Shown: positions 21,297-37,008 of the stretch, one piece after another
Numbering within the stretch: the first letter of the stretch is position 1
Layout of the letters: every line of letters begins with the position of its first letter
Assembly: GCA_964016885.1 (NCBI GenBank)
Contig: OZ024743.1
Coordinates: 308,140,001-308,204,000, forward strand
DNA length: 64,000 nt
From: Eledone cirrhosa
Taxonomy: Eukaryota
Direction: 5' to 3'
The notes under the pieces: model-generated
The model's input: the letters and a program-made list of their open reading frames with translations, nothing else
Told to the model about the DNA's origin: nothing
The model's database searches: none
Position numbers and translations under genes: made by a program

Positions 21297-21342
21297 AGCC
21301 TTGATAAGCTTCAACAAAAGTGAAACAAGGCCCTTGTCGGCT
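21297..21342 (+). ncRNA. Hammerhead ribozyme, U3-A8 core variant
   Basis: AGCC-TTGATAA-GCTT-CAACAA-AAGT-GAAA-CAAGG-C-CCTTG-TC-GGCT. Confidence 0.75.
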
Positions 21343-22798
21343 TATCTCCCCTGTTTGCTGAGATTAAAGTGAGTGAATTTGTCACTACTTTAAAACAATA
21401 GCTTACGGTCTTCAAAATGCTTTTAATTAAGCATAAAGTGTATTGCAAAATACATTATATATACATCCATATATATATTGCTATTTCAGAGCTCTAATTC
21501 TAATATATATATATATATATATATATATATATATATATATATATATATATATATATATATATATATATATATATATATATATATATATTATATATATATT
21601 ATATATATATTATATATATATTATATATATATATTATATATATATACAGTATATTATATATATATATGTTAATATATATATATATATATATATATATATA
21701 TATATGTGTGTGTGTGTGTGTGTGTAGTTAATCACATATAAAGACAGAGACAAGTGGTGAATTGGCAGTCATTAGAATCCTTTACGGTATTCATTTCGGC
21801 TCTCTGCACCCTGAGCTCAAATCCCGCCGAGGTCAACTTTACCTTTCATCCTTTCGAGGTCGATAAAAAAAGTACCAGTTTAGTTCTTGTGTGGATTATT
21901 CCACTATATCTCTTTCTCACTTCCAATCTCTCTCTTTTTCTCTGGAAGAAATCGGTTGTGTTCAGACTTGGAGAAGAGATCGGCTCCGCCAGGTTAAACA
22001 AATGCCCAAGAAACGCATTATGTTACTTCAGCGCCCTCTATGACTTTCTCGGGAGTTCATACACACCAAGACAGAGACGAACAGATAGGTAAACAAAAAG
22101 ACTGACAGAAAGGTAAAATTCCTTTGGTTATCAACTGATGATATTTTTAGCTCTCATTTCTGATAAATAATCTACTCTTCACTATATGTGTGTGTGAGTG
22201 TGTGCATGTGTGTGTGTGCGATTGTGTGTGTGTTCGTGCGTTTACAAAAAAAATCTCTATACATTGACTGATTACAAAGAGCATTATTTCAAGTGGTAAG
22301 GAATACAAGTCTGAACTAGTTAGATTATCATAGAAGAGTGAGAGAGGGGGAGAAAGTAAGTGTATGTGCGAGAGAGAGAGAGAGAGATGGAAGGATAGGT
22401 GTATGAATGTGGGAGAGAGAGATGACTTATAGATAGATATAGATATAGGATGTAGTATTGTAGGTGTAATCAAGTGTTATCATTGGACAACAAAACTGTT
22501 TACTTAACTATACATACACACACACACATTCACACAGACACACTGAGACACACACAACACCCCCCCACACACTCACATACACACACACACTCAAACTTAC
22601 AAGCAATCGAACGAAAACAAAGATATGCACATACACTCACATGTATGCACAGAAATATATATATCTTATATCTTACACTCATACACATGCACCTATATAT
22701 AAAATATTCATATCTCGTATGTGTGTACAGTGCACACCTGTACAGGTATGTATGTATATATATATATATATATATATATACATGTGTGTGTGTGTGTG

Positions 22799-22985
22799 TC
22801 CCGGTTGCAATCGGGGGTAACCACAGTAAGTAAGGTACTGAATACATAGCAGAGTATAGATGTTTAATCTACAAATGGTTACCTCCGATTGAAACCGGGA
22901 CAAACACACACAGGAAAACCCTGATGATCAAGAAAACCCTGATGATTTCCTTCGAATGAAACAGTTCTAGTCCTGTAGAAGCCCT
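22799..22985. repeat. PLE-end-like fragment with 25-bp inverted repeat and decayed HHR (22939-22978 +)
   Basis: 22799-22823 pairs with about 22875-22899. Motif CTGATGA-TTTC-CTTC-GAAT-GAAA-CAG...CTG-TA. Confidence 0.5.
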
Positions 22986-23199
22986 TTATATATATATATA
23001 TATTTCAATCATTGTTGTACGTCAGTGAGACGTGGCCTATGCTTGCTCACCACACCACCTATGCGAATTAGAAGCCTTCCATTAACTCCCTTTGCGCAAG
23101 ATACTTAAGATAAAATGGTGGCACAAGAGAACAAATACAGAGGTTCTATTTCATGCAAAGACAACTACAGTTGAAACAATGATCCGGAACAACCGTCTC

Positions 23200-23460
23200 T
23201 GATGAATGGAAGATAGTCACATTCCAACGCAGCTCCAGTTTGGTGAATTAGCAAGAGAAGTAGAGATCGCCTACGAAAGCGCGAGAACGACTGCATTAAA
23301 GGAGATCTAAACCTCTTCAGCTTCAACTTCTCACATGGCATGATCTGGCTGCAGACCGTAGTGCCTGGTGGAAGCGGACGAAGCATGGCTGCATTCTTTC
23401 AGAAGCGTCACTTGACCAGCGAGCAGAAAGGCGCCGAAGACGACATCATAATGAGAATCC
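23200..23460 (+). mobile_element. RTE-type LINE C-terminal fragment
   Basis: MEDSHIPTQLQFGEL...DCIKGDL...WHDLAADRSAW. Confidence 0.65.
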
Positions 23461-23753
23461 TCATTGTCAATAATGACGGGCACGAGAATAAAAAATAAAA
23501 AATAAAATACACACACACACACATATATATATATATATATATATGTATATATATGTATATATGTGTATATATCATGCCACCTTGATTATACCGGTTAAAC
23601 TATGATTGTCAGAAAATGCCGTGTATGGGTATTTAGTCAGTAACAGCTTGCACATCACTGCAAAAACTCTCAACTGCAAGACCAAGTGATCAAGCAAGTG
23701 TAAGTCCTCTGGCTCGGTAAAGAGTGTTATTTCAGAGTAGCCTTCTCCTAGAC

Positions 23754-34616: not shown

Positions 34617-35973
34617 CTAGCATTAAAGCCCGGCGTTGCTCGGGGTCATTAAGTTACCAAAGTTAGGTTGCACCACCCATTTTATGGCAGCACTTTTTTG
34701 TCTGCCAGGCACTGGGTGAATGAATTGCAGACCTGGAAGCAGGAGCTGCGCCAGCAGTGACAATTGTAGTTTCGCCTATGGATATTATCTCTGTGCAAAA
34801 AAGTGTTGAAATTTATTGTTTCACAGTACTTGCGCAACACGCGCATAGACGATGCCAGCCGAACAACAGAGCTGCGATGGAGTTGTTCTGCATGGTTGTC
34901 TGTGTGTTTTCTAAATTTAAGACAGTAGGGAGGGTTGTGATATGAGGGAGAGTTAGCTGTTGTTTCTAGCAGGTTTAGTGACCTCATAGAGGATATGTGT
35001 TTTCTAAATTTAAGACAGTAGGGAGTGGTGTGATATGGAGGAGAGTTAGCTGCTGTTTCTAGCAGGTTTAGTGACCTCATAGAAGATATGTTTTCTAAAT
35101 TTAAGACAGTAGGGATGGATGTGATATGAGGGAGAGTTAGCTGCTGTTTCTAGCAGGTTTAGTAACCTCATAGAGGATATGTGTTTTCTAAATTTAAGAC
35201 AGTAGGGAGTGGTGTGATATGGGGGAAAGTTAGCTGCTGTTTCTAGCAGGTTTAGTGACCTCATAGAAGATATGTTTTCTAAATTTAAGACAGTAGGGAT
35301 GGATGTGATATGAGGGAGAGTTAGCTGCTGTTTCTAGCAGGTTTAGTAACCTCATAGAGGATATGTGTTTTCTAAATTTAAGACAGTAGGGAGTGGTGTG
35401 ATATGGGGGAGAGTTAGCTGCTGTTTCTAGCAGGTTTAGTGACCTCATAGAAGATATGTTTTCTAAATTTAAGACAGTAGGGAGGGGTGTGGTATGGGGG
35501 AGAGTTAGCTGCTGTTTCTAGCAGGTTTAGTGACCTCATAGAGGATATTATTGTTTATCATTATCTATAAAAGGCAGATTGTTGTTGTTGTTGAAGTGAG
35601 TGTGTGTTTGTATGCGTTTGGAAAAGAGGTTTTAAAAAAGATTTATCGCTTGTTGTTGAATAAATGTATCTGTTGCTTTTGAAACGGACAGTATCACCAT
35701 CAAGCTTGGAAAGAGAAAGTAGCAGAAAGTATGAAGTTGTATAGATTTTGAATGGTAGTGGAAAGAGTTTAGCAGTTTAAATGACAGAGAAAAATCGTAA
35801 AATATTGAGTTTTATCTATTTTTTGCGTAATTGTGGGTGAAATTGAAAAAATGAGATGTGCCAAGACGCAATCGAAACTATTTCGAATACTGAATTGTAA
35901 ATTTCAATTGAAGAAATTCTATATCGTAGATTTCTATAAGAAAGGAGCATGACCACACACTGAGCTTTATAGA
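34617..35973 (-). mobile_element. Non-autonomous Helitron with internal 92-bp tandem array
   Basis: A|TCTATAAAG ... CCCGAGCAACGCCGGG...CTAG|T. The flanks rejoin to match the uninterrupted repeats at 18060-18175 and 18490-18600. Confidence 0.8.
34905..35547. repeat. About 92-bp tandem repeat x7 with 184-bp higher-order period
   Basis: Alternating unit variants. Near-identical ORFs occur 184 bp apart. Confidence 0.92.
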
Positions 35974-36788
35974 TTATGATTACTCTTTATTGTTTATTTT
36001 ATATTATGTTTACTGATATATCTATTTACTTATCTATTTTTGTACATGCCTAGGGTCGATGAGGGGTCAAGGATACCAGGATGGAGTCAATGATCTATGA
36101 TTGGTGATCCTTGATCTAGACATTACATGTTGGTGTTGCTGCTGTATTTGTAGGGGTGGGGTATATGTGATGCTATAAAGAAAAAAGTAAAATCGCTAAC
36201 TAAGCTGACTAAGATAGATATTAGTTTAGTCTACTAGTTGAAAGGATGAGAATTTATATTCTATCACCAGCATCCGATCTTTGCCAAGACATGAAAATTT
36301 CCGCTGGCTCAGTTCGCTAGATTACAAATAGACGGACTTATATTGACGCTGGAAATATTGTTTAAGGATTAGAGACAAATAACGTTTTAATTGATATTAA
36401 CTACTCCTTCATTGTTGGATAGGTTTACAATCTGACCGCTTTATTCATGGTGTCACTATTCCTTAACTTTGTGTGTTCACTCTGAGTAGAAATTAATCAA
36501 TTACTCACTTATTGAGTACTTCGTGACAGCCTCTGATAATTGGATTGTTCATCTGCTATATATATATATATATATATATATATATATATATATATATATA
36601 TATATATATATATATATATATATATATATATATATATATATATATATATATATATATATATATGAATGTATATATAGCGTATTTGGCAATACACTGTATG
36701 CTTATTTAAAAGCATTTTGAAGACCTTACGCTATTGTTTTAAAGTAGTGACTATGTCACTTCTTTTTTTCAACAAACAAAGGGAGATA

Positions 36789-36832
36789 AGCTGACAGATC
36801 TCTGTTTCATACTGTTGGTATTCCTCAGAGCT
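36789..36832 (-). ncRNA. Type I hammerhead ribozyme, canonical core
   Basis: Exact reverse complement of 36965-37008. Confidence 0.85.
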
Positions 36833-36964
36833 CACCACTCCCCTTCTCTGTTGAAAATGATGAATGTTGGACCGGCAACCGCTATGTATAATCAGTTCCT
36901 GATTATTACTGGAATTCTATAAGAATCCAACATTCATAATTTTCAACAGACAAGGGGAGTGGTG

Positions 36965-37008
36965 AGCTCTGAGGAATACCAACAGTATGAAACAGAGATC
37001 TGTCAGCT
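36965..37008 (+). ncRNA. Type I hammerhead ribozyme, canonical core
   Basis: AGCT-CTGAGGA-ATAC-CAACA-GTAT-GAAA-CAGA-GA-TCTG-TC-AGCT. Confidence 0.88.

Follow-up and report, generated by a model that had tools for sequence, protein, structure and literature searches.

Is selection maintaining the fold of a hammerhead ribozyme at two sites in the genome of Eledone cirrhosa, and what kind of element carries it? The sites lie near 21 kb and 37 kb of a 64,000-nucleotide stretch (NCBI GenBank assembly GCA_964016885.1, contig OZ024743.1, positions 308,140,001 to 308,204,000 of the forward strand; hereafter the window, numbered from its first letter). Their hammerhead motifs differ in stems I, II and III and, within the core, by a swap of the 3-8 pair between C3-G8 and U3-A8, which an earlier note had taken as evidence of selection on ribozyme structure. 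We find that selection on the ribozyme fold is well supported, and that the support is carried by the whole family of copies and not by the 3-8 pair. The two sites very probably represent two subfamilies of one hammerhead-bearing ~318-bp repeat, likely a retrozyme that lacks long terminal repeats (non-LTR), copied into (TA)n by a Penelope-like enzyme.

When both strands of the whole 64 kb were scanned with a structure pattern, exactly four hammerhead motifs were returned: the two named sites and their inverted partners. The cores, stems and positions quoted for these sites in the earlier note were confirmed by a sequence check at both. The forward motif at 21 kb (21297-21342, +) reads AGCC TTGATAA GCTT-CAACAA-AAGT GAAA CAAGGCCCTTG TC GGCT and is a type I hammerhead with a U3 (21301)-A8 (21306) pair, a 6-nt loop 2 and a predicted cut after C17 (21338); its inverted type I partner (21023-20978, -) is also U3-A8 and has a private A9->C lesion. 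The forward motif at 37 kb (36965-37008, +) reads AGCT CTGAGGA ATAC-CAACA-GTAT GAAA CAGAGATCTG TC AGCT, again type I, with C3 (36969)-G8 (36974), A10.1-U11.1, a 5-nt loop 2 and a predicted cut after C17 (37004), and its type I partner (36832-36789, -) is identical to it. The core U4 G5 A6 .. A9, G12 A13 A14, A15.1-U16.1 and H17, with a Watson-Crick 3-8 pair, is present in three of the four window copies, the exception being the 21-kb minus copy (A9->C). The layout of three helices with stem I open, backed by covariation, is that of type I, and self-cleavage after position 17 is predicted for the window motifs. They are not minimal hammerheads of the Penelope-like kind (min-HHR), since stem II has 4 bp, positions 9 and 10.1 are not separated by a bulge and the palindromic stem III region spans 8-13 nt. 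The plus arm at 21 kb has a private C11.1->U change, giving a G10.1.U11.1 (G.U) pair; C is found at 21321 in contigs of sequencing run X1 (depth 53,920/53,950). Because each arm thus has a private lesion, neither 21-kb arm shows the family form. Contigs were also obtained for three other organisms, 2-7 in each and at low depth, and no conclusion is drawn from these.

Evidence for selection comes from changes placed on a tree. Across the majority rows of 15 subfamilies, drawn from 302 distinct copies with at most 30 used per subfamily, 13 coincident double changes were counted on 27 pairs against 1.4 expected; when the same columns were re-paired, none of 20,000 re-pairings reached 13. One of these changes is at the 3-8 pair, five are in stem II, two in stem I, four in a long extension of stem I and one in a 3' hairpin. 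The extension, of ~20 bp, adds covarying pairs to those first noted; in the plus arm at 21 kb it encloses the ribozyme (21271..21365, +), with 21271-21291 pairing with 21345-21365, and it covaries between subfamilies. In a separate alignment of 18 natural copies, 94.8% of cells were paired and 13 of 26 pairs varied on both sides, a number higher than in 499 of 500 shuffles and in every slid control. Ten of ten catalytic positions other than 3, 7 and 8 were invariant in the 15 subfamily majorities, whereas variation was seen at the free position 7 and, within the ribozyme region, in 24 of 48 columns. Two aspects of the design count against taking these numbers at full value: the sequences of stems I-III served to label the subfamilies, which partly builds in the stem covariation between majority rows, and the extension and the 3' hairpin were drawn from the same sequences in which they were tested.

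To call the covariation full, as had been done, is an overstatement. A U.U pair occurs at 10.1-11.1 in three subfamilies (B5-B7) and beside stem I in seven, and one amplified lineage has an extra nucleotide in the core. U10.1-U11.1 is a known natural variant (PMC3088659; axolotl HHR_Amex2, PMC7229834).

Could the covariation be an artefact of shared descent, with no selection on structure? The 3-8 swap is indeed one event, and alignment cells recount inherited changes, as this explanation would have it; the 13 coincident changes are instead counted on a tree and fall on separate pairs, and the slid controls were only 30-45% paired, which makes it extremely improbable. Nor do we favour the idea that recombination brought a different hammerhead module into one family, in place of change by compensated steps. 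The two elements were correctly described as homologous in their flanks, where identity is 50/64 (5') and 106/124 (3'), and the ribozyme between them is less alike (29/44), as capture would predict. Against it, intermediate subfamilies bridge the two window forms one pair at a time, stem II being GTAC in subfamilies C, D and B4, GCAC in a single copy, GCAT in A2 and GCTT in A1. Moreover, flank and ribozyme histories are congruent, since both the coincidence result and the branching are unchanged when ribozyme columns are removed from the subfamily tree. Module capture is thus very improbable.

The family was followed through the genome with a ribozyme pattern in which stem I was fixed as AGCY and a 3' anchor was added. 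It gave 1335 matches, against none in a reversed control, and the motif is therefore not a chance occurrence. The pattern misses subfamilies A3, A4 and D and most copies with an extra core A, which have other stem I or anchor sequences; all of these have U3-A8 majorities. The 1335 matches comprise 849 U3-A8, 437 C3-G8, 13 C3-A8, 12 U3-G8 and 24 others, the last figure obtained by subtraction; two of the 13 C3-A8 matches start in an inverted tail and are not ribozymes. Since the copies are not independent of one another, a Fisher test on the resulting 2x2 table was not accepted as evidence. Mismatched cores (C3-A8 or U3-G8; 25/1311) are spread across many stem backgrounds, and in seven of eight comparable insertions that have one, a sibling unit has a paired core. 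Such rare mismatches fit decay following insertion, as expected.

How much does the 3-8 pair itself contribute? A copy tree was built from 258 distinct copies (349 raw matches, 273 after overlap removal, with copies lacking either flank anchor dropped). On it a single change of the U3-A8/C3-G8 state is seen, whether ribozyme columns are included or dropped, and from the flanks alone all 98 B-type tips fall on one side of a branch with support 0.99. As the change is single, the 849/437 split reflects one event passed on to many copies, and the 3-8 pair alone would probably not be called by a method that takes phylogeny into account, such as R-scape. The swap emphasized in the earlier note is therefore real, and selection on the fold is supported, the evidence for it coming from the family as a whole. 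The 3-8 pair is Watson-Crick in all 15 subfamily majorities. No distinct amplified U3.G8 intermediate was found, the 12 genome-wide matches lying on several backgrounds; three U3.G8 copies in B5/B6 are near one another in the tree, each closer to a C3-G8 copy, and a very small amplified U3.G8 lineage is possible there. Subfamily C (U3-A8) lies near the node where the C3-G8 clade departs, and its copies are the most diverged (median 6.4%, against 0.8-4.8% in other subfamilies). This hints at a reversion to C3-G8 on a tree that is unrooted and has no outgroup. Neither the swap nor the kind of element is new, as both are already described in other organisms: natural U3-A8 cores and C3-G8 to U3-A8 covariation were reported in 2011, with activity in vitro (PMC3088659), and U3-A8 in Penelope-linked hammerheads in 2014 (PMC4209133).

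Stem III required a different drawing from the one first proposed. The pairings CAAGG/CCTTG and CAGA/TCTG leave loops of 1 and 2 nt; because such loops are impossible in a hairpin, the drawn stem describes an intermolecular dimer, and the proposed pairs stand only as a duplex between two molecules. The stem III region with its loop is self-complementary in all eight forms folded, with energies of 0 to -1.8 kcal/mol as a hairpin and -10 to -20 kcal/mol as a duplex. Dimer action has been reported for animal hammerheads (PMC4209133, PMC7229834).

We turn to the element in which the ribozyme resides. Both sites are two-armed (inverted, palindromic) insertions of one ~318-bp non-coding repeat in (TA)n, with a type I hammerhead motif on each arm, in a host genome of 3.0 Gb that is rich in microsatellites. 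At 21 kb, the left arm (20818..21231, -) holds ~1.3 monomers of subfamily A1 (U3-A8) and its tailed 3' end adjoins (TA)n; the right arm (21232..21503, +) is a 5'-truncated monomer ending in a tail (21480-21503) and then (TA)n, and the target tract extends over 20537..20817 on the left and 21503-21705 on the right. At 37 kb, the left arm (36664..36871, -) is a 5'-truncated monomer of subfamily B1 (C3-G8) with a tailless 3' end at a TA run, and the right arm (36869..37163, +) is a near-complete monomer with a terminal tail (37137-37163), between (TA)n at 36557..36676 and 37163-37220.

The same repeat is abundant elsewhere in the genome. An exact 29-mer from the 3' part of the monomer has 3760 matches (control 0), and DNA searches with the two arms gave 1023 and 2164 first-look candidates, the best copies being 95-98% identical. 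Mapping of the first 90 loci revealed partial tandems and inverted 5'-truncated arms of the monomer, and bare monomers form head-to-tail arrays of up to seven units. Cut-to-cut units in natural arrays measure 315-323 bp with a guanine-plus-cytosine (GC) fraction of 0.32-0.34 (34 distinct units), and circular folding of 13 units gave z-scores of -4.1 to -9.1 against 30 shuffles each. A short, low-GC, non-coding monomer in the ~150-400-bp range, present in tandem with one type I hammerhead per unit, has the sequence hallmarks of a non-LTR retrozyme, and we suggest that the repeat is likely to be one.

One alternative is that the repeat belongs to an autonomous Penelope-like element, being its truncated terminal repeat (pLTR), and is not an independent retrozyme. 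Penelope pLTRs do carry hammerheads, opposite-strand pairs 100-700 bp apart have been ascribed to truncated elements (PMC4209133), and the insertion ends described below are Penelope-like. The head-to-tail arrays of bare monomer speak against such an origin, as does the finding that no open reading frame (frames of at least 150 amino acids) is contiguous with the monomer at the first 90 loci, and the terminal repeat of a neighbouring autonomous element is a different one. We regard the pLTR explanation as quite unlikely.

Elsewhere in the window, a near-perfect 40-bp hairpin (inverted repeat) at 49568-49655 is flanked by (TA)n tracts and is probably made of both ends of another two-armed insertion.

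Insertion ends were mapped at loci L061-L148 (less L091-L094) and L189-L246. Of 188 distinct 3' ends, 147 fell into two bins, 72 at monomer positions 311-318 (the TA run) and 75 lying 21-30 nt further; none was within 5 nt of the predicted cut. The 213 5' ends were scattered over the unit, with 12 within 5 nt of the cut compared with ~7 if uniform. Two fixed 3' ends (with a 25-30-nt tail), 5' truncation, an inverted arm and an AT-rich target together form a Penelope-type signature: Penelope insertions have a tail, partial tandems, an inverted truncated copy and a preference for TA (PMC8557442), and internal initiation by reverse transcriptase (RT) at two sites explains an optional tail (PMC11167929). 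The fixed 3' ends with their tail point to a putative Penelope-like mobilisation of the repeat.

Variants within single insertions bear on the template. In L208 (G000:C1:23436673-23439701) two variants are common to the outermost unit of each arm and not present in three inner units, and in L232 (G000:C1:62808000-62810900) the two outermost units share one variant not found in five inner units; the units of L197 are near-identical. The pattern in L208 and L232 suggests that, in at least some insertions, a single multimeric RNA and not a circle of one monomer was the template for both arms, the alternative being arm-to-arm conversion.

We propose that tandem copies would be transcribed, and that neighbouring ribozymes, paired with each other by way of their self-complementary stem III, would cleave the RNA into unit lengths, some of which may then become circular. 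A Penelope-type RT/GIY-YIG protein would then nick (TA)n and, with either an uncut multimer or a circle as template, start reverse transcription inside the RNA, presumably ~140 or 165-170 nt downstream of the cut site. New subfamilies would be founded by lineages in which the ribozyme stays foldable, and inserted copies would decay neutrally, leaving rare mismatched cores.

Several observations weigh against this interpretation. Searches with Rfam found no hammerhead family among 147 matches at E<=1 for the whole window, only microRNA-type hairpins, and no hammerhead among 10 matches at E<=10 for 36780-37030. Since Rfam gave no hammerhead match, the motifs are assigned on the basis of the pattern, the conserved core and covariation; a Rfam match is an aid to detection and not a defining property of hammerheads. 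Core lesions are common to all units of one insertion in two cases (A9->G in 4/4 units of L230; U3.G8 in 2/2 units of L221), so insertion is apparently still possible from a template whose ribozyme is impaired, and ribozyme mutants of one Penelope element insert normally in vitro (PMC11167929). The extra-A lineage was itself amplified, and an intact ribozyme is thus not required for each insertion. As to the helper, no terminal sequence was common to the monomer and either a young Penelope-like family (30 loci) or four or five other Penelope-like loci compared (best E 0.12), and frames near copies are not contiguous with them, (TA)n or other DNA lying between. Single-strand minimum-free-energy folding was not used as evidence, because it failed to recover the hammerhead for the 21-kb plus copy (z 0.13) and recovered it only partly for the others.

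A further possibility is that the structure is retained as a fold bound by a protein or recognized by RT, with self-cleavage weak or dispensable. The absence of 3' ends at the cut site would fit, as would the amplified extra-A lineage and the U.U pair at 10.1-11.1 in three subfamilies; metazoan Penelope hammerheads have low activity in vitro (PMC4209133), and the ribozyme of one Penelope element is dispensable there (PMC11167929). A recognition fold does not account for a core in which ten catalytic positions are invariant and the free position 7 varies, nor for a 3-8 pair that forms only in the active conformation (PMC3884650) and is Watson-Crick in every subfamily majority. We therefore consider it unlikely, if deserving of some weight, and retain selection for an active hammerhead as the better account.

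A source of the enzyme was sought among Penelope-like elements. Neither the window copies nor the first 90 loci contain, or directly adjoin, a frame with RT and GIY-YIG. The young Penelope-like family (L094, G000:C4:338953400-338957400; L247-L276) has 104 scored matches at 98-100% identity, many with intact 1217-amino-acid frames, and an RT domain (Pfam RVT_1, E 2e-5). It lies in (TA)n, its frames have an asparagine-rich insert, and its terminal repeat bears a hammerhead-like motif of the minimal type with C3-G8; we take the family to be Neptune-like. Penelope-like frames near copies (L005/L094, L011, L028, L087) were considered as helpers and rejected as co-insertions.

The window also contains Penelope-like remnants of its own. 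A 5'-truncated, frameshifted element lies between (TA)n tracts at 42829-45869 (+), with an RT frame at 43137-44243, a GIY-YIG-like frame at 44290-44967 and a short inverted end at 45851-45922; it has no Pfam match, and from its motifs we presume it to be Hydra-like. At ~45535-45645 there may be a hammerhead whose stem II has a long insert, but folding gave it no support (z 0.03). GIY-YIG-like fragments of further Penelope-like elements were recognized by eye at 12823-13245 (+) and 55115-55636 (-), neither with a Pfam match.

The repeat can be placed among known systems. Like metazoan non-LTR retrozymes (Cervera and de la Pena 2020, PMC7229834; 10.64898/2026.07.22.740005), it is a ~300-bp low-GC non-coding monomer, found in tandem with one type I hammerhead each, with a short stem III suited to dimers, some U.U pairs at the base of stem II and Penelope as the proposed helper; it differs in being mostly dispersed as two-armed (TA)n insertions, in its U3-A8 majority, and in being known here from sequence alone. 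The main text of the preprint 10.64898/2026.07.22.740005 (Li, Clavereau and Pollet 2026) makes no mention of octopus or mollusc. With the Penelope hammerheads of Cervera and de la Pena (2014, PMC4209133) it shares U3-A8 (~1,300 matches, in Schistosoma mansoni there), opposite-strand pairs 100-700 bp apart, many compensatory changes and a palindromic helix III, whereas its hammerhead is of the canonical type (4-bp stem II, no 9/10.1 bulge, palindromic stem III arms of 4-6 bp), not minimal, and sits in a monomer with no open reading frame. The core variants of Perreault et al. (2011, PMC3088659) include both the C3-G8 to U3-A8 covariation and U10.1-U11.1; the extra nucleotide between 11.1 and G12 is not among the insertions named in the text of that work. 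Insertions of Penelope-like elements that bear an endonuclease (Craig et al. 2021, PMC8557442; Frangieh et al. 2024, PMC11167929) resemble it in their partial tandems, in an inverted arm with 5' truncation, in an optional tail that comes from two RT starts and in AT-rich or (TA)n targets, whereas no protein is encoded here and the tail is 25-30 nt.

An abundant animal retrozyme under selection for an active hammerhead fold can thus be put forward from DNA sequence. Its ~15 natural subfamilies, differing by single compensated pairs, compose a panel for studying the context needs of U3-A8 and serve the question of whether cleavage matters in Penelope-driven spread.

Exact matches to the extra-A lineage, in which a U3-A8 ribozyme has one more A between C11.1 and G12, number 212 (control 0); examples are L277-L288 (e.g. 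G000:C1:70680447-70680477), and the lineage usually has an extra T after stem I too. It is either a tolerated core variant or an impaired-ribozyme lineage that spread anyway. An extra nucleotide at this place is not named in the available text of PMC3088659, which names those after A6, at 13a and near C3; a literature search found no description of an 11.1/G12 insertion, and core-variant studies and supplements outside that search may hold one.

Loop 2 and the 10.1-11.1 pair follow the state of the core. Among sampled copies, those with U3-A8 have G10.1-C11.1 in 142/149 cases and a 6-nt loop 2 in 149/149, and C3-G8 copies have a 5-nt loop 2 in 83/83, with 10.1-11.1 being A-U in 56, U.U in 17 and G-C in 7 of the 83; the shortened loop and the weakened pair occur in the C3-G8 clade only. 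It is conceivable, and we offer this tentatively, that the family is a dated natural record of ribozyme epistasis, in which one reversion from U3-A8 to the stronger C3-G8 was followed by shortening of loop 2 to 5 nt and by a shift of 10.1-11.1 from G-C to A-U to U.U, with U3-A8 lineages keeping G10.1-C11.1 and the 6-nt loop. In parallel, the extra-A lineage (>200 copies) would be a new tolerated core variant or one rescued in trans by dimer partners. If so, the C3-G8 core permitted relaxation of loop 2 and of the 10.1-11.1 pair. Because each association rests on one branch and the direction is unrooted, epistasis is put forward as a hypothesis and not as a statistic; a literature search on it found nothing relevant, and studies outside that search may treat context dependence.

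Other repeats lie in the window. Minisatellite-like arrays occupy 34905-35548 (period ~91 bp), 8734-9198 (96/72) and 57494-58071 (~95). Broken transposase-like frames at 24589-26353 (+) match DUF4371 (E 6e-7) and presumably derive from a hAT-type DNA transposon.

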